A stretch of 64,000 bases of DNA. It comes from a virus. The stretch covers positions 1 to 64,000 of IMG/VR virus record IMGVR_UViG_3300045957_000047. One strand, written 5' to 3'. The notes under the pieces were generated by a model. That model was not told the origin of the DNA. It searched no databases and saw nothing but the letters and a program-made list of their open reading frames with translations. The translations under genes and the position numbers were made by a program. This document shows, in pieces, positions 4,843-49,591 of this stretch (position 1 is the stretch's first letter; every line of letters begins with the position of its first letter).

Positions 4843-6219
4843 ATGAGCCAAAACAACGAACAAAATTTAGTCCTCTACAGCCACACGGTGCGCTATTTTC
4901 ACGCATACCCGACAGCGCCGAAGGATGGTTTTTTCTTCATCGAGGGATTGCTCCAGATAGGAAAAAGTGCCCCAACAGCCATCCCTGTTGCCTGGATCAA
5001 CAATTTTCGTAACCAGTTACAGCTCGAAGTTTTTCCGCTCAAACACTCTCGCCCTTACAACACCAACCACGTTCTCAAGAGTCTCAACAGCAGTATGGCC
5101 ACCTCTTTCGACTCTTTGGATGAAGCGCTAGAACGGCTACACAAAATTCTCCAAGACAAGGCTGCTCACAAAATGCTGACTCGCGAGAAGTGGATGAGTC
5201 ATCAGAAGCGTCGGTACGAGAAGACTCATTTTGCGTGCATGGATGTGGCTATGGCCAGCAAACCGGAGCCTCCGACCGATCTACTTCTGAACCTGCTGGC
5301 AGATCGCCGCGAATACACGCCAGCACAGCGCTCTTTACTGCTGACCAAGGGCGAGGACTCTGCCTTGCCTCAGACCCGCTCAGATAACAAAGAGAAAGCC
5401 AGGACAACAGGCTCGATCTGGGCTGATATACAAAAGAGAGAACCCACGTACTGGACTACCCGATTAGTCCGGGCGTATGCGATGGAAGCCCCTCTTCTGG
5501 TCACTCACCCAGGCGTTGCTAAGGTGCCGCACTACGAGGTGAACGTGCAAAACAGACTGCATCCAAAGGCGTTGGACAACTTTAAAAAAAGACTTGAAGC
5601 CATGCTGGACTTATCTCACAAAATCCCCTTCGCTCCCCCCAAGTATGCCGCCAGCAATCTAAGACTACCGGTAGGCCATCCGCTGAACGTCTGGCGAGTT
5701 CACAACAACCCCCCTTTGACAAACATGACTATGCACTCTTTAGTAGAGCTGCCTCACGAGAAATTCCTTGAGCTGCTGTGCCTACAGGCAAATTGGATGA
5801 CTGACTGGATGATTTTGTTTCACTCCGCCGTAGGCACAGCAGCTCGCGACCGCATTTTGGCTTACAGTAGCCTGTGGGTGAGCACTGGACAGACGATCTC
5901 GGAGACAAAAGTAGACAATGATTACATACAGACTCTTATAAATGAAGTGCTGAAGTCTCCAGAGTTTCTCGAACAGCATGCCCCTAGCGAGATCGATGTC
6001 TCCACCTTGCCGTCTCTGTCAAAGCAGGTCGTACAGGATCTGCCACCGAGAAAGCCTATAGCTCCCGACATGGAAGAAGATCCCGAAGATCCATTGGGGG
6101 TATACCAGCAGGTAGATGTACAAGACTATGAGCAATTACCTCATAGACAAAACCCAGGAAAGGCTAAACCCATCGACTTGTCAGGAATCGATCTTACCGC
6201 CCCAGTTAATAAAAAGTAA
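4843..6219 (+). CDS. Hypothetical protein (458 aa)
   Basis: Long ORF with AAGGA RBS; no motif recognised. Confidence 0.85.
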   Translation: MSQNNEQNLVLYSHTVRYFHAYPTAPKDGFFFIEGLLQIGKSAPTAIPVAWINNFRNQLQLEVFPLKHSRPYNTNHVLKSLNSSMATSFDSLDEALERLHKILQDKAAHKMLTREKWMSHQKRRYEKTHFACMDVAMASKPEPPTDLLLNLLADRREYTPAQRSLLLTKGEDSALPQTRSDNKEKARTTGSIWADIQKREPTYWTTRLVRAYAMEAPLLVTHPGVAKVPHYEVNVQNRLHPKALDNFKKRLEAMLDLSHKIPFAPPKYAASNLRLPVGHPLNVWRVHNNPPLTNMTMHSLVELPHEKFLELLCLQANWMTDWMILFHSAVGTAARDRILAYSSLWVSTGQTISETKVDNDYIQTLINEVLKSPEFLEQHAPSEIDVSTLPSLSKQVVQDLPPRKPIAPDMEEDPEDPLGVYQQVDVQDYEQLPHRQNPGKAKPIDLSGIDLTAPVNKK

Positions 6220-10728: not shown

Positions 10729-10955
10729 ACATTCTGGAGAAAGTAAAGGCTATCCAAGAACAATTGGACGAACATTTGGACATTGTCCGCCAGGTCAATG
10801 AGGAGAACAATAACTGGAAACCGGATTGGGAAAACACCCCAAACAGCAAAACGTTTTTAAGTTTGAACAACAGCACAGAAGAAGTAACTTTCAGGACTTA
10901 TTTCCATTGCCAAGCATTCCCTAAAGTTCTTGACTACTTTGTAGAAACCGTTTAA
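10725..10955 (+). CDS. Hypothetical protein
   Basis: 76-aa ORF with strong RBS. Confidence 0.75.
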   Translation: MNILEKVKAIQEQLDEHLDIVRQVNEENNNWKPDWENTPNSKTFLSLNNSTEEVTFRTYFHCQAFPKVLDYFVETV

Positions 10956-10983
10956 TTTATTAAGTCACAAGCAGTGCAACGCT

Positions 10984-11123
10984 GCAGGGTTTTAGCAGAC
11001 CCGACAAGAAACAGGTACAGTCAGTTTGTCAGTGAGAGTTTAGGGAGGGGGAACCCTGCCGTCTTCTTATTCTGCTTTCTTGTACGGTCTGCTAACCCTA
11101 GGCTTTCACTGACAAACCGATTG
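10984..11123 (+). ncRNA. Structured intergenic RNA element with three interleaved inverted-repeat pairs
   Basis: Pairs 10984-10991/11052-11059, 10992-11014/11072-11095 and 11018-11045/11096-11123; G-U wobbles favour the + strand RNA. Confidence 0.6.
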
Positions 11124-11132
11124 AGATAAGCG

Positions 11133-11420
11133 ATGAAACAATTCCCCAATCCGTTAATGGTCGCGTACCTTACCAAGACCAGTGCTACTAACAAGAAAGT
11201 ACAGGTTCGCATGTTTGTCCAGAGCCTGTACAAAGGCAGACCTGCTACCTATACCCACCGTATTGATCATGCACTAAAGCTGCCTAGAAACGAGTGGCCC
11301 CGACTGCCTGAGCATACGTTGATGCGCCACGGTTTAGCACATCACAAGCAAAAGATTCACTTAGGATGTGGGAAATACATCACCGAGGTAACCGCACAAG
11401 ACGTGAGTGCCGTGACATGA
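11133..11420 (+). CDS. Basic hypothetical protein
   Basis: 95-aa ORF. Confidence 0.65.
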   Translation: MKQFPNPLMVAYLTKTSATNKKVQVRMFVQSLYKGRPATYTHRIDHALKLPRNEWPRLPEHTLMRHGLAHHKQKIHLGCGKYITEVTAQDVSAVT

Positions 11421-11590
11421 CTGACCAGGACATACTGGATCAGTTCATCAAGATCCTGGAAGAGGCCTGTGAAACAGATGAGCCTTGTCACACGCTTGAA
11501 CTGGGATACAGCAGCTTCATCGACGACTATTTCGACACGCAAGTACTGGTTAACGGATTGCGTCAACTGATAGAGAGGGTAGGTTTCTGA
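11417..11590 (+). CDS. Small acidic hypothetical protein
   Basis: MTDQDILDQF..., translationally coupled at both ends. Confidence 0.7.
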   Translation: MTDQDILDQFIKILEEACETDEPCHTLELGYSSFIDDYFDTQVLVNGLRQLIERVGF

Positions 11591-13551
11591 TGAAAAAAGA
11601 ACTCTATTCTTTTGATTTGGAGACCTTTTTAATTCACACAGATTACCCGGAACCGTATGGGTACCAGGGGCTGTCACCTATCCCAGTGTGCATGTCTCAC
11701 TTGAGTTCAAAGGATTATAGGCCTCAGGTTATAGAAACGTTCTATGACAAGAAGCTCATTACAGACATTCTTATCAAGAAGCTTGAAGACGACAATGTTC
11801 TCTTTGCAAACCAATACATAGCGTTTGATTTCCTGGTTTCTGTCCGCCACCTGGATGTACCTATCGAACTGGTGTTTGCAAAGTATGACAAGGGATTGGT
11901 CCGAGATACTGCGGTGCGGGAAAGGCTCTTAACGCTGGCTAATGGAGACGCAGTAAAGAACCCTGGTATACGCTATGGTCTGGCGAATCTTGTACAGAAG
12001 TATCTGGACAAGGACATATCGTCTTCAAAGAAAGGTCCTGATGCTTGGCGATTAAAATACTCAGAACTGTACGGAGTACCCTTAAAACAATGGCCACAGG
12101 AAGCCATAGATTACCCTTTGGATGATGTCTCTCATGTCTTTCAGGTGATGGCTAAGCAACATAGAATGCGGCATCTGTTTGAGGCAAATGAGAAGGAGCA
12201 GACCCGTGCCGAGTTTGACTTGATTTTGTTGGCTGAGAAGTGTCCGAGGGTAGACCCCAAAGCAGTCCAAGCTCTTGAGGATCAACATAAGGAAAATGTA
12301 GAGAGAGCCCGACAGCCGTTCATCGACGCAAAGATGATGAAGTGGAATAAGAACAGGTACACCAAGTTTCCGAAAGGGGATAGTCGCAGAGAAGGCTGGA
12401 CTATGGATACCAAGAAACTGCAGAAGGCTATTGACAAGGACTATGCGAAGCAGGGTCGAGTGGTCCCTACAACAGAGGCTGGCTGCATTAAGAAAGATGC
12501 TGAGACCTTGTTGGGCTGCAAGAACAAAGCGCTACGTCAGTATGGGGAGACGGCAGGTGCTATAAAAGTGCTGGACGGTTTCTTGCCGGGTATGAAAACG
12601 GCACTCGACAGGCCAACCCAGAGGATCACAACGCAGTACACAACTATCCTGGTGACGGGCAGAACCTCGTCTCGTAAAGTCAACCTGCAGAACGTTGGCA
12701 AGGCTCCCGGTGCCCGTGAGTGCTTTATGGCAGAGGATGGCCATGTCATTGTATCGATAGACTATGAGGCGCTAGAGATGTTCACCCTGGCGCAGGCTGC
12801 TTATACGTGGCACGGAGCTACAGCACTCCTCAATGCTCTGAACGAAGGATTAGACGCTCACCTGTTGATCGTCGAGACGATTACCGGACGGGCCTATGAG
12901 GAGCTGAATGATGCTAAGAAAGCAGGGGACAAAGAGGTGCTGTCTTATCGAGCGTTGGCGAAGGTGTTTAACTTTGGAGCAGGGGCGTTCTGTGGACCGG
13001 ATACTCTGATCGGTAATATGAACACAGAACAACAGGAGACCCTACAGGGCTTGGAGCCCGATAGTGACCTACAGCAAATTGTTAGACGCATACTCAACCA
13101 GTGGACAGATAAGTGGGAGTTAAGACCTTTTTTAAGCTATTCCCAGAAAGCCTGTAGTAACGGCAGACGGCCCAGCTACACATGCCCCATCACAGGCAGA
13201 ACCAAGGCGCTCAATACCTTTTGTGGCCTCAATAACCTACGCTTTCAGGGACTAGGGGCTGATGCCATGAAGGAAGGTCTGGCACGGGTGCAGAGAGATG
13301 CTCATATTCCAGGGCGTACCCTGCACAGGCACGGGGTGATACCTATGATCGAAGTTCACGATGAGATTATATTCAGTGGACCTGTGGAGGGTCTGGAGGA
13401 GTGGGTGAAGCGAGCTCAGTATCTGATGGAGTCAGGAGCTGAAAGAATGTTACCCGACTGTAGTATGAGAACCGAAGCAGGGGTGTGTGGAACCCATTGG
13501 AGTAAAGAGGATGTCCCTGTCAGCGTGTATTTAGAGAGCCTGGAGAGTTGA
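11590..13551 (+). CDS. polA: Family A DNA polymerase with 3'-5' exonuclease domain
   Basis: ExoI FDLET, ExoII NxxxxFD, ExoIII YPLDD, TGRTSS, motif A DYEALE, motif B RALAKVFNFG, motif C VHDE. Confidence 0.95.
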   Translation: MKKELYSFDLETFLIHTDYPEPYGYQGLSPIPVCMSHLSSKDYRPQVIETFYDKKLITDILIKKLEDDNVLFANQYIAFDFLVSVRHLDVPIELVFAKYDKGLVRDTAVRERLLTLANGDAVKNPGIRYGLANLVQKYLDKDISSSKKGPDAWRLKYSELYGVPLKQWPQEAIDYPLDDVSHVFQVMAKQHRMRHLFEANEKEQTRAEFDLILLAEKCPRVDPKAVQALEDQHKENVERARQPFIDAKMMKWNKNRYTKFPKGDSRREGWTMDTKKLQKAIDKDYAKQGRVVPTTEAGCIKKDAETLLGCKNKALRQYGETAGAIKVLDGFLPGMKTALDRPTQRITTQYTTILVTGRTSSRKVNLQNVGKAPGARECFMAEDGHVIVSIDYEALEMFTLAQAAYTWHGATALLNALNEGLDAHLLIVETITGRAYEELNDAKKAGDKEVLSYRALAKVFNFGAGAFCGPDTLIGNMNTEQQETLQGLEPDSDLQQIVRRILNQWTDKWELRPFLSYSQKACSNGRRPSYTCPITGRTKALNTFCGLNNLRFQGLGADAMKEGLARVQRDAHIPGRTLHRHGVIPMIEVHDEIIFSGPVEGLEEWVKRAQYLMESGAERMLPDCSMRTEAGVCGTHWSKEDVPVSVYLESLES

Positions 13552-16865: not shown

Positions 16866-17077
16866 AAGTAAAACGCAGAATGCCCAGGTGGGAGTATCTT
16901 AGTGTTGATGAAAAGAGGGCTTGGCGTTCCATGGGTGTACTTAAAGAAGAGTACAACGGGTGTAGGAGAAAACTAACGTTTGCTAATGCCTATCAAGCAA
17001 GAAAGTTCGACAGAGGCAAAGTTCCTTATCGATGTCTCTATTGTGGGCATACTCATTTGGCAACAAGAAAGGCATGA
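16862..17077 (+). CDS. Small Zn-finger protein
   Basis: C..K..F...YRCLYCGHTHL motif. Confidence 0.7.
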   Translation: MKVKRRMPRWEYLSVDEKRAWRSMGVLKEEYNGCRRKLTFANAYQARKFDRGKVPYRCLYCGHTHLATRKA

Positions 17078-17502
17078 TTAAAAAGAAATATCGATCAGAA
17101 CCCAGGGTTATAAGATTCGCATTTATTGAAGCTTGCCTTATTGCCTTTGGGCAATTTAGAAGAGAGATGTTACAAAGGACGATTAACATCACTAATCAGT
17201 CGGGAGTCTCAACGGTACGATTGTTTCTTGCTATCAATCCAGGAGCTATGGAGTACAGTACGATAGCCCGTGCTTATTTTGTATCTGAGAATTTCAAGAG
17301 AGAGATCCTGAAAGCCGATACAGACCCGGCACACTTTCTTAATTTGGTCTGTGTTATTCATGGGACAGAGGTAGATTTTGATGAGATTAATAGCCGGATT
17401 GAGGTCATTCTTCGTAGCCGTGTTGGGGTCGATAGCCCTCGGTACATCAAGGAGCTTGACCAGAGAGAACGAAGACCTAAGAGAAGCAAGAAGAATCTCT
17501 GA
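17074..17502 (+). CDS. Hypothetical protein
   Basis: ATGA-coupled ORF. Confidence 0.7.
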   Translation: MIKKKYRSEPRVIRFAFIEACLIAFGQFRREMLQRTINITNQSGVSTVRLFLAINPGAMEYSTIARAYFVSENFKREILKADTDPAHFLNLVCVIHGTEVDFDEINSRIEVILRSRVGVDSPRYIKELDQRERRPKRSKKNL

Positions 17503-25258: not shown

Positions 25259-25464
25259 CTGCTTTGGGTTTATTAGTAGTGCCCATGGTGTGGCTTCTTT
25301 GTCTGGCTCTGATTATGTTCTTGGAAGGAATCAGAGCCAGACAAGTCTATCGAAAGAGAAAAAATAAAGGTCACTTTAAATACTGGGTATTGGTAAACGT
25401 ATTCAGTACAATAACCTTTCTGTGTGCATTACTGCTCAGTATCTTAATTCCTCACTTGGTCTAA
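25255..25464 (+). CDS. Small 2-TM membrane protein
   Basis: Two hydrophobic segments with a basic loop. Confidence 0.6.
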   Translation: MTALGLLVVPMVWLLCLALIMFLEGIRARQVYRKRKNKGHFKYWVLVNVFSTITFLCALLLSILIPHLV

Positions 25465-28400
25465 GTACAAGTGATACACCTGCATCCTTTCCCGGTCTCT
25501 TACTTCCTGTAAGTTTCTCTTTTGTGCTTTGGTCGTGTTGTCGTTGATAAACTGGGGTCTGTGTCTTCTGTTTATCGCAACCATCTGTCTCTGCGCTCTC
25601 TCAAAAGAACCTTTGTGTTGCCTGTAGAAGTCACTTTGTTCGATAGCCTGTGCTCCTGCAGTATCTCCGACTTGTTTTAAGGCATTAACCCGTTGACTGA
25701 GTTCCTGCATGCGGTTGAAGTGTCTATAGAAATCGGTACTGACTTGGTTGAAGTCAGAGGCTACAAAGTTTCGAGCAAAGTACAGCCCAGCTTTCTGGTT
25801 GTATGCATAGTCTTCATCTCGGGTAGCGTATTTAATATTCTCAAACGCTGATTCGACCAAATAAGTAATGCTGCCACCAAAAGATCTCATCAAATGCCTG
25901 AGTTTATCCGGGTTCATTTCTGCATACCCATTTCTGGATAGATGTTGAGTGATCTGGTCATACATTTCTTGTTGGCTGTTGTAGCGCACACCAAAAGATT
26001 CTGTCATGTCCCCCTGACCTGCTCCCACCACATCGGTGTACACCGGGATACCCAGGCCATTGAGATTCACGGCAACTTCGTAAAAGGGTTTAGTCACAGA
26101 GGGCAGGGCGGTACCTATTAAGGCAAGCGTAGGGTCGGCAGCAAAGAGACCAGCTACAGGGAATGGCGACACGTTGAGCGTAGGTTCGGAAGCTGCAATC
26201 ATATTCTCAAACGTATTGTTCAAGCCCTGGTGGCCCAGAGCGTAGCGCATGGCTTGGACACCGGCACTAAACGCAGAAGCGGGTGCTCCGAAACCCAAAC
26301 CAAATTGCAATTTTTGATCACCAAATTGCATGACAAAGTTTGTGGTGTAAAGCTTACCTTCTACTTTAGCCAGCTCATCGATGCCTTCCTCTTCATCGTA
26401 ACCGGCAATCATGTTGGCCATGAGATATAGCCCAGCGCCTGCACCAAACGTAATGGCCAGGGTCTCTCCAGCGTAGTCACCCGTCAGTACTGAGTTGATC
26501 AAAGCGGAGGTACCTACACCTGCTGAGCGTGCGAACGCATAGAAGACAGACAAGGGGCCTGTGATACTGCCGCGTTGCTCGAAGTTGGCCACACTCTTGG
26601 CAAGACCTGCCGCCACATCTTTGGGCTGGCCTTGGGCTTGCAGGGCTTTGTAGTAGGCAAAACGTGACAGGGTATCGGCTACCGAGTTCATGACAGCAAA
26701 GGTTTGATCCAACTGCTGTAGCCTTTTGGTAGCTGAACCGCGTCCAGGATTGACTTGAGACAGATCAGCGAAGCTGTTGGGTTGGCTGTCTTTAAGTGCT
26801 GCCACAAGGGATGTAGGGCCACCCAGTTTGAAAAACTCGTTGAGTTCTGCAATGGTAGATCCTGGTCCTTCCGAAGCCACCACCTCTGCTAAGCGATCAA
26901 ACTGGTTGGTCTGCCACAGAGTGATGAAACGTGACACGTCTTTACCGTAATTCAAGCCCCCTTCTGTAAAGGTGTTCATATACTGCCTGAAACCTTGGCC
27001 CCCTTCCTGAACACTGATGTTGTATCCCAGGGTCAGGATATTCCTGATGGCGTCGTAGGGGATAAAAGCCGGGTTACGCCATGTTTTCAGAGAGGCAATA
27101 AAAGAGGTGAAATCTCCCAGTCCCTGCCCTGCGGAAGTCGTTAGGGTCTCTCGGAATAGCCGGTCGACGGCATCGGCTGTAGCGTTACGCACACCGGTAA
27201 TCACATCAGCCCCTTCAGGAGTAGACAGCTGACCCACAATAGCTTGGTCTTGCCCTGGGATATAATAAATCACAGTGCCTTTTGTTCGCCGGGCCATAGC
27301 CCTTTTGAACTCACGACTGTTGGTATCGAACAGCTCAATACCGCCTTTGAACAAGTCTCCACCAAAGCCGTCATCAGCCATGCCATCTCGGTATTCAGAG
27401 GACGCTTTGTTTGCGGCCATGTGGGTGAGTAGGGCCAAGGCATAGTCCCCGGACGTGGACTGTTCAAGAGATCCCATGGCCAGCTGCTGTAGCCCACCGA
27501 ACACATCTTGTGCCAGACTCTCCCGGCCTTCAAAGGCTTTGAAGCTTGAGCTGAATACATCGTTACCATAAAACACACTCAAGGCCTCGTCCTCGTTGTC
27601 GGGGTTGAACCCTTTACCGCGCAAAGGCACGTAGTTCTGCCACCCGTAGGCAGCAATCCGATCTTTCAAACTCTGGCTGAACGCACCTTGCCGTTCTCGT
27701 AACGTGTTACTGGCTGCAACTACTTTCTGAGAAGAGGCTGCAATAGCCTCATAGAACTGCAGGTCATTACCTTGGAACTTGCTGAGTACTTGGTCGGCCT
27801 CAGCATCAGTCAGACCCGAACCTTTCCATGACGCCCTTTGCTGGGTGTCGGTGTGGGTGTAGACAATATCCCGGATATCCTGCATGTTCTGAGGAGTCAG
27901 ATTCTCCGCCAAAGCATCCCGTTGACTATTGAGGGCAGAGTCATTGAGTTTGACCTGGAGTAAGAACGAGGTCTCGTTACGCTCTTTGGCATGCTTGGCT
28001 GTCATGTACAAACCGGCACTGGTTTTGGCAGCATCGATACTGACACCCAGAGCATTGGCCAAGTCTGCCACAGAGCTGTTCAGCTCCGCCATGACTTCGA
28101 AAAAGGTCATGTCATTACCTTGAGCATCCTGGCCCACGACTACCATGTCAGCATCTTTATTCTTGGCCAGGGCTTCCGCTCGGGAGGCATATAACGCGCC
28201 CAGCGAGTGAACAGAGAAACGCGACTTGAGTTGCTCTACATGCCCTGTGATCAGATCTCGGAGTTCTTGAGGTATTTGCTCGTTGCTCTGAATCTCGTTG
28301 ACGACTGCCTGGATACGGTTGTCATCAAAGCGTTTGCGAAACAAAGTCTCAACGACCTGAGTTGTGAATTTAGAATCGGCGATAGCCTGCTGCACAGCTC

Positions 28401-31400
28401 TCCAGGTTTTGCTTTTAAAGAACTGCTCTCGTTTGTTGGGGGATCGAGAGAAGTCTAATGCTGCCTGTGCCTGCCTCTGTGCGAAGTCTCGGAAGTCTTC
28501 GAGTGGAGAGTTTACGGAGCTGACAACCTCACTGCTGCCTACTACGATACGTTCTTGCACGGTGTTTCCAGAGCCATCTCGATAGACGATAGCATCAGGC
28601 TGAGGCCTGGCTGCCCGGACTCGTACAGGTTGGTCCAGTGCTCCTGACTCTCTACCCTGTCGGTTTGCCTCGGAGATCATGGCCATCAAGTCAGCATCCG
28701 ATACTTTGTCAAACCATTGAGCAGGTAAGAATCGCTTCAGGTACTTCTTAAACTTGTTGACAATCTGCTTGAGGGTCTTGGCAATGCCTTTGTCTATAAA
28801 AGGACTTTGAGCAAGTTGAGCCAATACCTCATCAGTGAGTTCAATCTGAGAATCGCGATCACCACTCTGGGCTTGAGCAATCAGATTCTGGTAACGAGTT
28901 TCGAAGGTGTTGGTAGGCACATTTTCTCGTAGCAACTCAAGAAGCCCGGTAACACCTCCGCGTGTGCGGAACGTCCGTTGTAGCGTGAGATCGTAGTTGC
29001 CGCCCAGGGATCGTGACAAGCCTCGGTGGAAGAGTTCCTCTGTTAGAACATTACCCACCTCAAAAGCACTCTGAATCTGATCGGCTACCAGGTAGGCGAC
29101 ATTGCCGTCTGTGAAACCAGATACAGGAATATCAGGCCTGATGTCAGAAGGTAGGTCACTGGTCGTTTGGACAATTACAACACCGTCCGTTGCTTTCTTG
29201 GGCCACGAGGCTGTGAAGTCGCGTAATGCCTGGTCTACGTCGGCTGTTGAAAACTGTTGGGGCGCAGGTAACCCGTTAAGATCCGCATCGGGGAGAGTAC
29301 GTGTTCCGTCCGGTATGGCCTGCGCCCCAACAGAGCGGGTTAGAACAGGACGAGCTGCCCGTGTTCGTGCTGGGTTGCCGGTATTATTGCCCCCGGCTTC
29401 AGGGGCGTCGAGCTTTTTTGCATTATCAATAGCTTTGAGGTAAGTAGCAACACCTTTGCGAATCGTATTCGCCTCTTTTTCAGTATACGGACCGTCCGGT
29501 TTTTCTTTTAGAATTTTCCGGTAATCCGTAACTGCTTGTAATTTAGAAATACGAGTACGTTTTTTTCTGGGTATCAGCGTAGCATCAGGGTCTTTGTTTT
29601 TACCTGTGTTAGCAAACGTTCGAAACCTCTTGACCGTGTCGGGATCACTGACGACAAACTGACCTTCACTATCTGTATCGGGTGTAAACAGTTCCTCAAG
29701 AGAAATGATGTTGTCTACAGTGGTCTCTTCCTCTTGCAACGGAGGGGCGTCAAAGTCTACTTCGCCTTGTATTTCCGACTCGATTTCTTCTTCGACTTGT
29801 TCTTGGACATTTTCTTCTTGCTGCGTTGAGGCATTAGGGATCTCGGCAAACGGGTTATAGACAGACGCTACTGTATCTTGAAACTCTCTAGGTGTCATGT
29901 CCTCATTGATTTGAGCAGTCACTTGCTGAGAGAAACTTTGAGCATCTTCAAGAGACAGCCCAGAGTTTAAGGCCATCTGCTCCAGTTCGGAGCCTACAGA
30001 TGTGCGGCGTCCCTGAGTCAAGGATGTGGCTTTCTCCAGATAGTCAGCAATGGCTTTCTTTTGAGGTGCTGCCAGTTGATCAAACTCTAAATCAAGCCTG
30101 AAACTATTGACAACACTGGCAGCAGCCGCTCTTCGACGTTGTGCAGGAGTGATCTCGGCAACATCCACCGCAGGGGAGGCACCCAATAAAGGCTTGAACG
30201 CCGCCCGGATGGATTTGTTGAGGGGCACACTCTCGGGTCGGAACTCTGAAAACTGGTTATCCGCTTCCTGTTGAACTTGAGACAGCAAGTCAGAAGAGGC
30301 TTGCTCGCTAAGCTGTCTTTGGAACTCTATCTCTTGGGCTTGAGCCAGGTTACCCGAACGGACAGCCTCGCTCATCTGACTAAACAGCTCTGCATCTGTC
30401 TGCTGAGAACGAGCCTCTCTACTCTCTAAGGTCGCTTGTCGAGCCACCTGAGCAGACTCTCTACCCTGCTGTACCCTCTCTATCTCATCTCGGATGCTGT
30501 CAGCCAAAGCTTGTCGCTCTTGGGCTTGAGCCAGGTTACCCGAACGGACAGCCTCGGCCATACTCTGAGCTGCTTGCTCAAATTCCAGTTCCTGTTGTCT
30601 TTCTTGTTCTTGTCTTTGCTGGAGCCTTTCTTGTTCTTGTCGCGTCAACTCATCAGAAGCCAGTTGCTGATCCCTACGAGCATCCCTAAATGCTCTCTCT
30701 GAAATACGTGTTCGCAACTGCTCAGTTTGTTCTGCCTGAGTCAGAGGCCTATTAAAATCCAAAGGGTCAGGAGACTGAGGCTCAACTGGAGCGATGTCAG
30801 CACTGGGATTATCCGGGTTGTTGATATCCAGCTCTCTTGATATTCTGCTTTGCTCTCTTTCAGAGCGTACTCTTGCGATCTCAGAAATCAGACTGTTCTG
30901 CTCTTGGGCCAAGCGTTGTAGCCGAGCTTCCCCTCTGGATATAAGATCCTCTTCTGTGTCTCCCGCCTGGCTTCCAGGCAAAGACTGCAGTAAGTTCTGT
31001 TGTTGTTCCTGAGTTCGAGCCTGTGATAGTGCTTCTCTTTGAGCACCTATCTGATCAGCCAATCGAGCGTTGGAAGCGCCTTGCCGAGCATCTAAAGCAA
31101 CACTGCCTGCACCCAATGCCCCTCCCAAACCGGCCCCCAAGGGAGCACCTACGGCCCCACTGGCCAAAGCCTGGCGTTGTGCTTCCTGGTTGGTTAATAC
31201 CTGCCCTACGCTCAGATTGGGATTCTGCTGTGCGAATTGACCTAAAGCCTCACCACCACCTTCAACAAATTCTTGTGCAGCCTCGCCCGTGGCTGACACT
31301 CCCACACGACCAGCTGCCTGCCCAATAGAGGGCGCTGACGATACAACGGGATTCGCACCCGGCTGGATACGGGCAGGCAATACTTGACCGGCCCTTCGAC

Positions 31401-32568
31401 CCAGGTTACCCAAGGCCTGTTCAGCCACCTGCCCACCCAGAGCACCCGTAAGACCGGCAATGGGTGCTGATATGGCCCCTGCTCCAGCCAGAATCCGGGC
31501 TTGTTCAGTGGTCAGATTTTCATCGACTCCTGAGCCCAAGCCAACCCCTATGGCAGGAGTTGCAGCTGCTGTCCCTTGGATAACACCACCTGTAGGAGCG
31601 GCACGGGTACCCAGGTTTGTCAGTGCCTGACCGGTTCCGGTAGCACCTGCCCGACCTGCCACAGACCCTGCCAAGCGAGCACCTGCACGGGCTGCTCCGG
31701 TGACAGCACCGCCACCCAATGCTGCCCCGGCTGTATTGGCCAAGAGATCTGCTGCGAAGTCTCCATCAGTTAATGTCAATGAGCCTACTTGTCGGGCAGC
31801 ATCAAGGAGAGAAATTTTATCGGGATCGTTGTCAGCTAAGCCTGCCCGGCGAATAATTTCAGACGCTTGGAGACTTGCCGCCTCCGAGCCAATATCGGTA
31901 GGGGCTGCGCTTCGAATATCTGAGGCCAATCCGCCTAGTGATTGACCTAAATCTTCAGCCCCGGCGGCACTGGCTGCAATACCGGCAAGTCCTGGAATCC
32001 CGGCAAGTCCGGTAGCGGCTGCTTTTTTTACACCGTCAAAGAAGGTATCGGCACTCGCTAAGTCTTGTCTTCGATCCGTAGGTACGCTGGTATAGGGTTG
32101 AGCATCGGGGTTTTGCTGTAAGAAATCAGCCTCCTCGGCTGCCAGCACCTGTTTAGCCTGCCGAATGATGTTTCTTTCGAACTCTGTATCTGGATCACGC
32201 CCGGCTCTTGAGAGTCTTTGCAGCTCCTCATCGAGTTTGAAATCAATAGTTGCCCCCAAGTCACCGGATAACCTGGACAAGTAAGCTTCGTTGTTGTCCA
32301 GTCCCAGATCTGAGTAGATGGAGCTGACTCGTTCGACGGCTAACTGTTGGATTTGTTGCTGCTCAAGCGCCTGTTCATTGGCCTGCCTGATCTGAGAAGC
32401 ACTGGGTTGATTGGCCTGTTGAAGTCTCAGGGCTTCGTTCTGTTGAGCAAGGGCCTCGGCAATATCATCCAAGCGTTGATCTTGCCGGATTTGCTGGACG
32501 GTATTGTCGGTGGCTCCGAAGTCGATAAGTAGTTTGATCTGTTCTGTTGCGTCGTTCGCATTTGCCAT
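25444..32568 (-). CDS. Giant internal virion/ejection protein (polyvalent type; LPD38-like C-terminus, degenerate metallopeptidase domain)
   Basis: 2374 aa; Gly/Ala-rich N-terminal segment, EELFHRGL, NYVPLRG, NPAF, NFEQRG, NPDKLRHL; last gene of the structural operon. Confidence 0.75.
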   Translation of the reverse strand: MANANDATEQIKLLIDFGATDNTVQQIRQDQRLDDIAEALAQQNEALRLQQANQPSASQIRQANEQALEQQQIQQLAVERVSSIYSDLGLDNNEAYLSRLSGDLGATIDFKLDEELQRLSRAGRDPDTEFERNIIRQAKQVLAAEEADFLQQNPDAQPYTSVPTDRRQDLASADTFFDGVKKAAATGLAGIPGLAGIAASAAGAEDLGQSLGGLASDIRSAAPTDIGSEAASLQASEIIRRAGLADNDPDKISLLDAARQVGSLTLTDGDFAADLLANTAGAALGGGAVTGAARAGARLAGSVAGRAGATGTGQALTNLGTRAAPTGGVIQGTAAATPAIGVGLGSGVDENLTTEQARILAGAGAISAPIAGLTGALGGQVAEQALGNLGRRAGQVLPARIQPGANPVVSSAPSIGQAAGRVGVSATGEAAQEFVEGGGEALGQFAQQNPNLSVGQVLTNQEAQRQALASGAVGAPLGAGLGGALGAGSVALDARQGASNARLADQIGAQREALSQARTQEQQQNLLQSLPGSQAGDTEEDLISRGEARLQRLAQEQNSLISEIARVRSEREQSRISRELDINNPDNPSADIAPVEPQSPDPLDFNRPLTQAEQTEQLRTRISERAFRDARRDQQLASDELTRQEQERLQQRQEQERQQELEFEQAAQSMAEAVRSGNLAQAQERQALADSIRDEIERVQQGRESAQVARQATLESREARSQQTDAELFSQMSEAVRSGNLAQAQEIEFQRQLSEQASSDLLSQVQQEADNQFSEFRPESVPLNKSIRAAFKPLLGASPAVDVAEITPAQRRRAAAASVVNSFRLDLEFDQLAAPQKKAIADYLEKATSLTQGRRTSVGSELEQMALNSGLSLEDAQSFSQQVTAQINEDMTPREFQDTVASVYNPFAEIPNASTQQEENVQEQVEEEIESEIQGEVDFDAPPLQEEETTVDNIISLEELFTPDTDSEGQFVVSDPDTVKRFRTFANTGKNKDPDATLIPRKKRTRISKLQAVTDYRKILKEKPDGPYTEKEANTIRKGVATYLKAIDNAKKLDAPEAGGNNTGNPARTRAARPVLTRSVGAQAIPDGTRTLPDADLNGLPAPQQFSTADVDQALRDFTASWPKKATDGVVIVQTTSDLPSDIRPDIPVSGFTDGNVAYLVADQIQSAFEVGNVLTEELFHRGLSRSLGGNYDLTLQRTFRTRGGVTGLLELLRENVPTNTFETRYQNLIAQAQSGDRDSQIELTDEVLAQLAQSPFIDKGIAKTLKQIVNKFKKYLKRFLPAQWFDKVSDADLMAMISEANRQGRESGALDQPVRVRAARPQPDAIVYRDGSGNTVQERIVVGSSEVVSSVNSPLEDFRDFAQRQAQAALDFSRSPNKREQFFKSKTWRAVQQAIADSKFTTQVVETLFRKRFDDNRIQAVVNEIQSNEQIPQELRDLITGHVEQLKSRFSVHSLGALYASRAEALAKNKDADMVVVGQDAQGNDMTFFEVMAELNSSVADLANALGVSIDAAKTSAGLYMTAKHAKERNETSFLLQVKLNDSALNSQRDALAENLTPQNMQDIRDIVYTHTDTQQRASWKGSGLTDAEADQVLSKFQGNDLQFYEAIAASSQKVVAASNTLRERQGAFSQSLKDRIAAYGWQNYVPLRGKGFNPDNEDEALSVFYGNDVFSSSFKAFEGRESLAQDVFGGLQQLAMGSLEQSTSGDYALALLTHMAANKASSEYRDGMADDGFGGDLFKGGIELFDTNSREFKRAMARRTKGTVIYYIPGQDQAIVGQLSTPEGADVITGVRNATADAVDRLFRETLTTSAGQGLGDFTSFIASLKTWRNPAFIPYDAIRNILTLGYNISVQEGGQGFRQYMNTFTEGGLNYGKDVSRFITLWQTNQFDRLAEVVASEGPGSTIAELNEFFKLGGPTSLVAALKDSQPNSFADLSQVNPGRGSATKRLQQLDQTFAVMNSVADTLSRFAYYKALQAQGQPKDVAAGLAKSVANFEQRGSITGPLSVFYAFARSAGVGTSALINSVLTGDYAGETLAITFGAGAGLYLMANMIAGYDEEEGIDELAKVEGKLYTTNFVMQFGDQKLQFGLGFGAPASAFSAGVQAMRYALGHQGLNNTFENMIAASEPTLNVSPFPVAGLFAADPTLALIGTALPSVTKPFYEVAVNLNGLGIPVYTDVVGAGQGDMTESFGVRYNSQQEMYDQITQHLSRNGYAEMNPDKLRHLMRSFGGSITYLVESAFENIKYATRDEDYAYNQKAGLYFARNFVASDFNQVSTDFYRHFNRMQELSQRVNALKQVGDTAGAQAIEQSDFYRQHKGSFERAQRQMVAINRRHRPQFINDNTTKAQKRNLQEVRDRERMQVYHLYLDQVRN

Positions 32569-47723: not shown

Positions 47724-48422
47724 TCAAGCAGGTCTGTTTTTAGGGTAACGAATCAGAAGTTGTTCAATATCTTCAGGCTGCCAAGATCTTAAGGCAATAA
47801 GCTCAGGATAGAGTAAAGAGTCCCGGTTTCGAGAGTGCGACAACCCTAAAGCATGTCCGATCTCGTGATCCGTTACCGTCTCGAAGAATTGATCGTTGGT
47901 CCAAGTCTCTGAGGTATCGAAGATCATATCTCCGCACAAGGGTCCACAGGCTGACATACGATCCCCGGTACCTGGCACATACGTCACTCCCAGAGTACCT
48001 CCCGCACCATCCAATTCAGCCCACTTAATATGGATGTCCGCATTTCGAAAACCCGTTTGTCGAAACTCAATACCACAAAGGTTCTGAACAATGGCAAACC
48101 GTTCTTGTAAAATTATACCCGCTCTGGAAGTACCTTGATTGATAGGATTATGAGACCAGGTTACCGGCTGTCCTTGGTCTACCTTGTGCCATCGACGCTC
48201 TCGGGGCTCCGGGCAATTACAGACTGGACTCTTTGGCTCTTCATTGTTTTTGAAAAACGTAATCAGCTCATCAATCGCTTCTCGTTCTGTCTTAAAAGAA
48301 ACTCCCAAAAGCATGCGGGCAATGTCGATGCTTTCAGACCACAGAAACATACGCCGAAGACGCAAAGGCGACAAGTTTTTGAAGAGAGAACGAAGATCAT
48401 CAATGTCTTTGTAGCTGTTCAT
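47724..48422 (-). CDS. Matrixin (M10) zinc metallopeptidase
   Basis: ADIHI, DGAGGTLG, GDMIFD..ETW, HEIGHALGLSHS, SLLYP turn. Confidence 0.9.
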   Translation of the reverse strand: MNSYKDIDDLRSLFKNLSPLRLRRMFLWSESIDIARMLLGVSFKTEREAIDELITFFKNNEEPKSPVCNCPEPRERRWHKVDQGQPVTWSHNPINQGTSRAGIILQERFAIVQNLCGIEFRQTGFRNADIHIKWAELDGAGGTLGVTYVPGTGDRMSACGPLCGDMIFDTSETWTNDQFFETVTDHEIGHALGLSHSRNRDSLLYPELIALRSWQPEDIEQLLIRYPKNRPA

Positions 48423-49591
48423 TAAACTGTTCTCGTTTGCCCTTCAGGGTGTAAATAGATTCGAGCATAGGCCACTTCTAAAGAGGCGGGATAATCATTG
48501 ACATCCGCAAAGTTTTCCAGTGCTCCTCCTGGAAGTGCTGCCATAGGATAATTACCTCCGGCGGCGAAGTTGATGATCAGGTACATAAACTGGTCACTGA
48601 TCAAGTCAGAAGAGCCGTTGATGCAGTTGACAATCTGGCCATTCAGATAGAAGTGAATGTAGTCAGGTGCCCAATCAACAGCCACGGTATGCAACTCGTT
48701 ACAAGTAGTGCCCGCCGTATCCAGGAATGTCTTGTCGTTCCCATCGCAATCTTTATATAGCCCGGCATTGGGTTGGCCATCGACCTTGAAGGCTTGGCCG
48801 TCGATAGTCCACCGATTCAAAGTGCCCAGCGCATCCCCGGTAAAATAGTGGTAAGCATTGGTCAGAATAGAGTCACAACCATAGTTGTCAACGTTCTCTT
48901 TGAAATCGATCTCGTGGTTGAACTTATCGGTACCATTGCCGTCGTTCTCTTCTGCATTCTTGTCAAATGCATTATTGTAATATAAGCAATTGAGTAGCCA
49001 AGCAGCTGTCCACATACCTCCGGGACAACACGGATCGCGAAGACAAACTTCTGCATACCCGTATTTGAAACAGGCCGTGTCTCTGGTATTAATCATTCCG
49101 GAGCTGAGAAGAGGGGGTTTGGGCATAGGCTGTAACCCAGAACCGTTGTCAAAAAAAGTATCCGGTGCAGGGCCTTCAATAGGGGCAGCAGTAATCAGAA
49201 GATTACCCTGAGCATTTCGACTGAAGGGGTTTGCGCCTTGCCAGCCTTGTCCACCCAGTGTATCTACGTAATACTGATCTTCGTTGTTGATAACCTGAGT
49301 AGGCCCCCAGATGAATGACGTACTCCACTTGTTGGGGTCTACAGGAGTAGACGGATTGTTAAACAAGTCTTCAAAAATCAGCGTGTAGTTTGACAACACA
49401 TGGGCAGGAGCATCGTTTTTTGTCTGTGGTACGACATTATTGCAATCACTAATCACAGGGTTTCTTCCCAAGGTATCTAAAATGGGATATAGCCGATCCA
49501 GCTGTTTTTTAAGATCAGCTATCAATTCATACCCCTCTTGCTGTAACTCGTTACGAGCATCCATCACAGGATTTATAACTGACTTGTCCAC
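48422..49591 (-). CDS. GH16 glycoside hydrolase (laminarinase-like)
   Basis: NNEDQYY, SSGMINT, FKYGYAE, WTAAWLL, catalytic EIDFKE, MYLIIN. Confidence 0.85.
   Translation of the reverse strand: MDKSVINPVMDARNELQQEGYELIADLKKQLDRLYPILDTLGRNPVISDCNNVVPQTKNDAPAHVLSNYTLIFEDLFNNPSTPVDPNKWSTSFIWGPTQVINNEDQYYVDTLGGQGWQGANPFSRNAQGNLLITAAPIEGPAPDTFFDNGSGLQPMPKPPLLSSGMINTRDTACFKYGYAEVCLRDPCCPGGMWTAAWLLNCLYYNNAFDKNAEENDGNGTDKFNHEIDFKENVDNYGCDSILTNAYHYFTGDALGTLNRWTIDGQAFKVDGQPNAGLYKDCDGNDKTFLDTAGTTCNELHTVAVDWAPDYIHFYLNGQIVNCINGSSDLISDQFMYLIINFAAGGNYPMAALPGGALENFADVNDYPASLEVAYARIYLHPEGQTRTV

Follow-up and report, generated by a model that had tools for sequence, protein, structure and literature searches.

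Our results indicate that the intergenic stretch at positions 10984 to 11123 (+ strand) of this viral DNA is, with good probability, a compact and diverged antisense-RNA switch of the C4/CI kind, as known from the immI locus of phages P1 and P7, the immunity region of P4, and isrK of Gifsy-1, and that it heads the operon for the viral DNA polymerase. The kind of regulator is known, only its form and location being unusual, and the topology of the RNA is not new. The window, by which we mean the whole 64,000-nucleotide (nt) stretch of DNA that was analyzed, derives from a complete viral contig of 74,198 bp with direct terminal repeats. In a search of sequencing runs, the stretch was found in one DNA run from sediment, from which it may originate, and in 0 RNA runs.

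RESULTS

Three crossed inverted repeats precede the polymerase operon

The initial annotation had described three complementarities that cross one another in this region, and all three were found again. Segment C (10984 to 10991) pairs with 11052 to 11059 at 8 of 8 positions. Segment A (10992 to 11011) pairs with 11076 to 11095 at 18 of 20 positions (10 + 8), and 3 bp more are added by 11012 to 11014 with 11072 to 11074, past a bulged C at 11075. Segment B (11018 to 11045) pairs with 11096 to 11123 over 28 positions, made up of 23 Watson-Crick pairs, 4 G-U pairs, and 1 mismatch. As the segments follow one another in the order C-A-B-C'-A'-B', each pair crosses all the others. The complementarity of A:A' and of B:B' is far above chance expectation. 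Given linkers of 3 and 0 nt, A:A' and B:B' are mutually exclusive as full-length helices, as had been noted before, and B' ends 10 nt before the ATG at 11133, also in agreement with the earlier description.

The region matches the C4 antisense RNA family

No known RNA family had been recognized in this region. When all 4227 Rfam families were searched against 1.2 kb, the only relevant match was to RF01695 (C4 antisense RNA), at 11029 to 11113 on the + strand, with 29.3 bits and an E value of 0.0033; with this family alone against the genome, the E value was 4.7e-5. The score does not reach the gathering cutoff of 45 bits. The match is strand specific, and in a clan-aware Rfam search no family matched the window better than C4 itself. 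At an E value of ≤0.001, RF01695 matched 0 of 14 control genomes, and the best score on five distantly related viral records was 14.3 bits. The match is thus below threshold yet specific, and together with the same crossing layout in P1, described below, it overturns the view that the region belongs to no known family.

The features of RF01695 that are present include the GCCGU...ACGGU arms of hairpin 2, the junction CUGCUAA, the closing CCC/GGG, and the tetraloop of hairpin 1, and the match takes in the conserved unpaired nucleotides of the family. Both the alignment and the MFE fold consist of a basal stem around hairpin 1, hairpin 2 (GCCGN...NCGGU), and a 7-nt junction (YUGCYAA) followed by CCC. 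For the isolated RNA from 11018 to 11123, the C4-like fold is the MFE structure, at -50 kcal/mol. The elements of the RNA body are as follows.

11018 to 11123, + strand: C4-like antisense RNA (RF01695 match and MFE fold)
11018 to 11045 with 11096 to 11123, + strand: basal stem, identical with B:B', 27 bp by MFE count and 27 to 28 bp overall
11046 to 11057, + strand: hairpin 1, AGGG-GGAA-CCCU (RF01695 alignment)
11058 to 11088, + strand: hairpin 2, GCCGU...ACGGU, with a 21-nt loop in which b' is 11073 to 11083 (RF01695 alignment)
11089 to 11095, + strand: 7-nt junction a', CUGCUAA, followed by the conserved CCC (RF01695 alignment)

Canonical loci against which these elements could be measured were collected by scanning viral contigs with a pattern for the conserved core, which gave 138 matches and about 50 loci with an exact a1. 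An exact a1 7-mer lies upstream of 64 of the 138 pattern matches, compared with an expectation of 1.7%, and 62 have an exact a2 on the downstream side. RF01695 recognized 10 of 10 canonical loci sampled, at 58.7 to 83.6 bits. The genes downstream of canonical loci are small open reading frames (ORFs) or antirepressor-type genes (KilA-N, Rha, ORF6N, Bro-N, and P22_AR_N), with antirepressor-type domains in 8 of 10 longer downstream ORFs that were sampled. A single locus in the pattern scan, L170, has a polA-like gene beside it; it was rejected as a chance pattern match and is not a C4 RNA.

CUGCUAA is also the junction sequence found most often among the viral-contig loci. The basal stem is 27 to 28 bp long, compared with 16 to 19 bp in canonical loci, and the tRNA-like ends associated with RNase P (5' AUGG and 3' CCACC) are absent, the sequence reading UCAGUGA at one end and UCACUGAC at the other. 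Of 56 loci, counting the row of the window itself, 41 have a C[AC]CC tail. Because the stem spans 28 bp and lacks ends of the RNase P type, RNase III is plausibly the more likely enzyme to process it.

The leader carries a candidate promoter, a1, and b1 in the order of the family

Upstream of the RNA body, the following elements were found.

10930 to 10958, + strand: candidate sigma-70-type promoter proposed from its spacing, with -35 TTGACT (10930 to 10935), a 17-nt spacer, and -10 TAATTT (10953 to 10958)
10971 to 10986, + strand: leader hairpin GCAGUG-CAA-CGCUGC (MFE folds; aligned to helix 1 of the leader model R1 described below)
10987 to 11002, + strand: a1 hairpin GGGUUU-UAGC-AGACCC (MFE and family consensus)
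10992 to 10998, + strand: box a1, UUAGCAG, the exact complement of the junction 11089 to 11095, with complementarity continuing to 11001 (UUAGCAG(ACC))
11004 to 11014, + strand: box b1, ACAAGAAA (11004 to 11011) plus CAG, forming 8 bp + 3 bp with 11072 to 11083 in the hairpin 2 loop

The junction a' and the loop b' are therefore complementary to a1 and b1 over 10 + 8 (+3) bp, in the same alignment columns as in P1, and the upstream boxes would arise together by chance with a probability below 0.002. TTAGCAG occurs nowhere else on the + strand of the 74-kb genome. The canonical consensus of the a1 hairpin is CGGGU-UUAGCAG-CCCG, with compensatory changes among the canonical loci, and our locus keeps this hairpin with one extra U-A pair. 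Box b1 is 8 nt long, within the canonical range of 5 to 10, and the gap between a1 and b1 is 5 nt, where canonical loci have 4 to 11 nt and one has 14.

TTGAC lies 62 nt before a1; the distance is 59 to 63 nt in 30 of 49 canonical leaders, with a mode of 61. A generic promoter scan flagged no promoter, which can be attributed to the -10 element matching at 3 of 6 positions only, and the terminator scan reported hairpin 1 alone, as a weak terminator-like site. No Rho-independent terminator and no T-run follow b1, and 3 to 6 nt separate b1 from the base of the stem, whereas a terminator is present after b1 in canonical loci. The distance from a1 to hairpin 2 is 66 nt, versus 81 to 140 nt in canonical loci.

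We also built a covariance model of the leader (R1) from 45 canonical leaders, with the window excluded. The first leader helix covaries among these 45 sequences, and the leader hairpin at 10971 to 10986, which aligns with this helix of the model, is its equivalent. The best match of R1 in the whole 64 kb, on both strands, is at 10961 to 11008, directly upstream of the C4 match; the score (11.4 bits, E of 0.37 window-wide) is weak on that scale and the position is exact. The locus thus has a hairpin, a1 within a GGG/CCC hairpin, b1, and the TTGAC spacing of the canonical leader. Neither RF03163 (c4-a1b1) nor RF01394 (isrK) matched the leader at an E value of ≤10. This is a test of low power, since the same models fail on most canonical leaders: 2 of 10 reach the isrK cutoff, 0 of 10 reach that of c4-a1b1, and 8 of 10 are missed by both.

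A downstream box lies before a small ORF coupled to the polymerase gene

The region from the RNA body to the polymerase gene contains the following elements.

11170 to 11180, + strand: possible degenerate a2, UUACCAAGACC, compared with UUAGCAGACC for a1; a weak candidate in which only AGACC pairs cleanly, with GGUCU at 11086 to 11090
11191 to 11201, + strand: box b2, ACAAGAAAG (11191 to 11199) plus UA, an exact 9-mer complement of the loop at 11075 to 11083
11211 to 11420, + strand: ORF1, a small orphan of 69 amino acids from the ATG at 11211, in a frame open from the ATG at 11133 (95 amino acids)
11417 to 11590, + strand: ORF2, small and acidic, 57 amino acids from the ATG at 11417, read from the sequence
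11590 to 13551, + strand: family A DNA polymerase, the first large gene of the replication operon (PHROG 17 at 5e-38; PF00476 homologs at 40 to 56% identity)

Pairing of b2 with the loop extends to 11 bp, at -13 kcal/mol; a match of 9 nt or more in a stretch of 100 nt would arise by chance with a probability of about 0.008. The box ends 11 nt before the ATG at 11211, within the canonical b2-to-ATG distance of 5 to 12 nt, and starts 92 nt after the CCC, versus 44 to 58 nt in canonical loci. No exact or wobble match to an a2 box was found, where canonical a2 boxes lie 18 to 27 nt after the CCC, and a direct-repeat local alignment of a1b1 with the downstream region gave a P value of about 0.06, which is not significant. 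A genome-wide RNAduplex search for targets had a noisy background (-30.3 for a1b1, with many sites at -25 to -28), and the targets considered here were taken from the box searches instead.

Judging from this arrangement, ORF1 is likely the regulated cistron, and the ATG at 11211 is more likely to be the regulated start than the ATG at 11133, since b2 lies 11 nt upstream of the former. A weak GAG precedes the ATG at 11133, and the base of the stem abuts this GAG. If the ATG at 11133 were the true start, b2 would fall inside the coding region and any effect would need cleavage or a roadblock. Searches of 5.8 billion clustered proteins and of 1.8 billion cluster representatives yielded no relative of ORF1, which also belongs to no Pfam, NCBIfam, or PHROG family. 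The start of ORF2 overlaps the stop of ORF1 (ATGA, 11417 to 11420), and its stop overlaps the start of the polymerase gene (TGATG, 11588 to 11592). Exonuclease, helicase, and primase genes follow that of the polymerase, a context that resembles the replication operon of P4 type.

A search for close relatives by blastn against a phage collection gave no match, nor did single-protein scans of viral contigs. Scans of viral and metagenome contigs with an alignment of polymerase homologs gave only relatives at 23 to 37% identity, none of which has a C4-like core detectable by regular expression or by RF01695. Closer polymerase homologs (P0002 to P0011) are at 46 to 56% identity. Integrase, resolvase, ParA, and ParB were not detected in the complete genome, and a role in immunity like that in P1 or P4 is therefore doubtful.

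Predicted folds favor two states formed in succession

The + strand RNA from 10960 to 11140 folds at -66.3 kcal/mol (z = -4.40), a value equaled by 0 of 200 shuffled sequences, whereas the z value of the - strand is -2.05. The earlier argument that the G-U pairs point to an RNA of the + strand holds, because this strand folds far better than its shuffles and the other does not. In folds of the growing transcript, A:A' is the MFE structure until about 11115, and B:B', in the C4 fold, wins from 11124 onward; nascent A:A' is lengthened by GGG at 10987 to 10989 pairing with CCC at 11096 to 11098. The final energies are -83.1 kcal/mol for the C4 fold (MFE) and -76.6 kcal/mol with A:A' enforced, a gap of 6.5 kcal/mol. 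A:A' is thus predicted to form first and B:B' once it is complete.

The third complementarity behaves differently. C' can be placed as follows.

11052 to 11059, + strand: C', AACCCUGC, which consists of the 3' arm of hairpin 1 and the first 2 nt of hairpin 2

Its partner C consists of the 3' end of the leader hairpin and the 5' arm of the conserved a1 hairpin. By an arithmetic estimate, about 0.15 perfect 8-mers like C:C' are expected per 140 nt, the equivalent complementarity in 55 canonical loci of the C4 family measures only 3 to 6 nt, and enforcing C:C' in folding costs about 30 kcal/mol. For these three reasons, C:C' is probably a chance match and not the functional third helix for which it had been taken. 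The initial annotation had also suggested a cotranscriptional switch that passes through C, A, and B; the succession of A:A' and B:B' is retained in our folds, but C:C' is favored at no stage and is absent from all growing-transcript folds.

DISCUSSION

The locus shares its architecture with P1, P4, and Gifsy-1

According to the account of Citron and Schuster (1990) given in PMC12197685, the immI locus of P1 and P7 has the order promoter P51, a1 and b1, c4 antisense RNA, a2 and b2, icd, and ant1/2. In the annotation of P1 (NC_005856), these are a1 (48255 to 48261), b1 (48269 to 48276), c4 RNA (48343 to 48419), a2 (48423 to 48429), b2 (48452 to 48459), and the icd ATG (48470). In a repeat search of P1, the junction CUGUCAA was the partner of both a1 and a2, and the loop of hairpin 2 that of b1 and b2. 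The A-B-A'-B' crossing follows from this layout, since boxes outside the stem pair with elements inside it. In our locus, A:A' accordingly corresponds to a1b1 paired with a'b', and B:B' to the C4 stem. The two loci share the basal stem, the two hairpins, the 7-nt junction as a', the hairpin 2 loop as b', the position of a1 and b1 upstream so that their pairing crosses the basal stem, and a b2 that ends 10 nt (11 nt in our locus) before a small first ORF coupled to the next gene. They differ in score, with 68.8 bits to RF01695 in P1 versus 29.3 bits, and in spacing, P1 having about 65 nt between b1 and c4 and a clear a2, whereas b1 of our locus lies 6 nt from the stem and a2 is missing. Furthermore, the P1 stem has 17 bp with GG...CCACC ends and is an RNase P substrate, in contrast to the 27 to 28 bp found here, and P1 is temperate with an antirepressor downstream, where our phage has orphan ORFs and a DNA polymerase.

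The immunity region of P4 has the order PLE, seqA, CI RNA (seqB), seqC, and replication (alpha) operon, and it acts in the lysogen by terminating transcription prematurely (PMC4825925). In the P4 genome (NC_001609), RF01695 scores 74.9 bits, and the leader scores 60.8 bits with isrK and nearly qualifies for c4-a1b1 at 44.1 bits. As in our locus, an RNA of the C4 family with complementary boxes upstream precedes a replication operon, which in P4 ends in the alpha primase gene, and the antisense RNA and its targets come from one transcript. The replication gene is a primase-helicase in P4 and a family A polymerase in our phage, in which lysogeny genes were not detected. P4 is thus an earlier example of a replication operon controlled by a C4-type RNA.

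In Gifsy-1 of Salmonella, alternative conformers of isrK-orf45 (STnc1160)-anrP have been shown experimentally (Hershko-Shalev et al., 2016; PMC4825925). Here too, the leader RNA has its complement farther downstream in the transcript to which it belongs, two alternative conformers exist, one of them translationally silent (the conformers of our locus being predicted), and translation of the regulated gene is coupled to that of a small ORF preceding it. IsrK, however, has its own Rho-independent terminator and is a short trans-acting RNA, whereas our locus has no such terminator, and the output in Gifsy-1 is an antirepressor. The c4-2 motif (RF02944), which is likely a distant homolog of c4 (Weinberg et al., 2017; PMC5737381), resembles our locus in being another diverged branch of the same kind of RNA.

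A proposed mechanism

A single transcript would start near 10965 from the TTGACT/TAATTT promoter and would contain, in this order, the leader hairpin, a1 in its GGG/CCC hairpin, b1, a folded RNA of about 85 to 106 nt, and b2. In the nascent chain, A:A' would form first and keep the antisense RNA inactive, and completion of B' would flip the RNA to the C4 fold. After closure of the stem, or after excision of the RNA, the loop could pair with b2 and block ribosome entry at the ATG at 11211, and the overlapping stop and start codons (ATGA and TGATG) would carry repression on to ORF2 and the polymerase gene, possibly aided by polarity. The a1/b1 leader would compete for the same elements as an anti-antisense RNA, and the net effect would be a delayed negative feedback on the replication operon. 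The proposed logic mirrors that of c4 and icd-ant in P1 (PMC12197685) and that of isrK-orf45-anrP, with its two conformers and coupled ORFs (PMC4825925).

Alternative explanations

The ancestry may be that of C4 and the action may nevertheless be purely in cis, with A:A' and B:B' forming a bistable leader that gates the ATG at 11133 or at 11211, or the stability of the transcript, without any RNA acting in trans. The 3 to 6 nt between b1 and the stem contain no terminator, so that no separate IsrK-like short RNA would arise by termination; this, the dominance of A:A' in each growing transcript up to 11115, the gap of only 6.5 kcal/mol between the final states, and the contact of the stem base with the weak GAG before the ATG at 11133 all speak for such a leader. 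It leaves b2 and its family-typical distance to the ATG without a role, however, and all members of the C4 family that have been studied act in trans (PMC12197685, PMC4825925). We therefore regard an action confined to cis as unlikely, although it is the strongest of the competing explanations.

The resemblance to C4 could instead be coincidental, and the region a generic hairpin, placed between the early genes and those for replication, that serves RNase III processing or RNA stability, as in T7-like phages. A stem of 28 positions with few defects between two blocks of genes and a subthreshold Rfam score are what such a hairpin might present. The match nonetheless covers conserved unpaired nucleotides, the leader, promoter spacing, a1 hairpin, b1, and b2 fit the geometry of the family independently of the Rfam model, and the joint probability given above for the upstream boxes argues against coincidence, making this explanation highly improbable.

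Still less credence is due to an element acting at the level of DNA, such as a replication origin, a cruciform, or inverted repeats bound by a protein. Dense inverted repeats do lie beside replication genes, but the four G-U pairs of B:B' are A-C mismatches on the other strand, where folding is weak (z of -2.05 versus -4.40), the match to the RNA family is strand specific, and the sequence has no iterons or AT-rich tracts. The idea that all three helices coexist in a knotted RNA, or that the RNA multimerizes by domain swapping, is suggested by the crossed arms and very short linkers and is the least probable of all, as linkers of 3 and 0 nt could not, on geometric grounds, span helices of 21 and 28 bp, C:C' is neither conserved in the family nor energetically favored, domain swapping lacks support, and the C4 layout explains the full pattern.

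Implications for the C4 family and its phage

If the region is a C4-type switch, as we consider probable, crossed inverted repeats can be read as a signature of C4/CI-type switches, in which outer boxes pair with inner loops, and the C4 family reaches beyond what is annotated at the Rfam cutoff. There is also a lesson for annotation, in that the a1b1 and isrK models of Rfam miss most leaders, even beside canonical C4 RNAs. The kind of regulator is well known; what is of interest here is the variant itself and its location ahead of a polymerase operon, in a sediment phage that has almost no recognizable genes and no lysogeny module. Lacking a terminator, and having an extended stem and only one clear box downstream, this compact variant could serve as a convenient minimal system for studying the choice between self-pairing and target pairing.

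This also raises the possibility, which we put forward tentatively and hold to be well short of an even prospect, that in this apparently nontemperate phage the switch is a self-contained RNA timer, an immunity device of temperate elements reused for temporal control of replication genes in the lytic cycle. With a1b1 fused directly to the antisense RNA, the nascent transcript would be locked in A:A' and the operon would be translated; the flip, or an RNase III cut in the 28-bp stem, would then free the antisense RNA, which would shut off later transcripts of the polymerase operon.

Genes downstream of the C4-like RNA

The two small genes that follow the C4-like RNA, the orphan ORF1 (11211-11420, +) and ORF2 (11417-11590, +), which encodes an acidic product of 57 aa, are linked to each other and to the family A DNA polymerase gene (11590-13551, +) by the following stop/start overlaps in the window.

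11417-11420, ATGA overlap of ORF1 and ORF2
11588-11592, TGATG overlap of ORF2 and the DNA polymerase gene

Through these overlaps, the three genes are predicted to form one translationally coupled chain. The polymerase, a protein of 653 aa, lacks the PF14890 insert, which we take to be an intein-type domain, present in several proteins of 927 aa (P0004, P0007, and P0009) that are among its closest homologues (50-56% identity). The majority of this phage's early genes lack any family assignment, and the only recognisable domain in a 2374-aa protein (25444-32568, -) is large polyvalent protein-associated domain 38 (LPD38), located close to the C-terminus.

Further copies of the box sequences

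The b-type box ACAAGAAAG, the complement of the hairpin-2 loop, recurs without mismatch in the window segment 17063-17076, which also takes in ATG 17074, an alternative start of the ORF at 17032-17502; the box ends 2 nt 5' of this ATG. The a-like site upstream of this copy is weak (6 Watson-Crick and 2 G-U pairs of 10). The C4-like RNA may act on this copy in trans, or the copy may have arisen by chance, as the 9-mer occurs four times genome-wide outside the module. An exact a-type box, TTAGCAG, complementary to the RNA junction, is present outside the window at genome position 65081 (minus strand), with a partial b box, ACAAG, beginning 4 nt after it; the 63 nt downstream of this a-type box contain no start codon.

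Canonical C4 modules in other viral contigs

Two contigs with canonical C4 modules, L057 and L066, also harbor an Rfam int-alpA RNA (RF02996), 1.2-1.6 kb 5' of the C4 modules, and are read as putative P4-like elements.

L057 6267-6332, int-alpA RNA
L066 2112-2180, int-alpA RNA

A third contig, L089 (IMGVR_UViG_2806310672_000003), harbors two complete C4 modules (~2353-2413 and ~4909-4958) separated by ~2.5 kb. As their junctions are identical, their loop/b-box sequences differ, and a Rha-like ORF lies downstream of each, the two modules are stacked switches with separate specificities.
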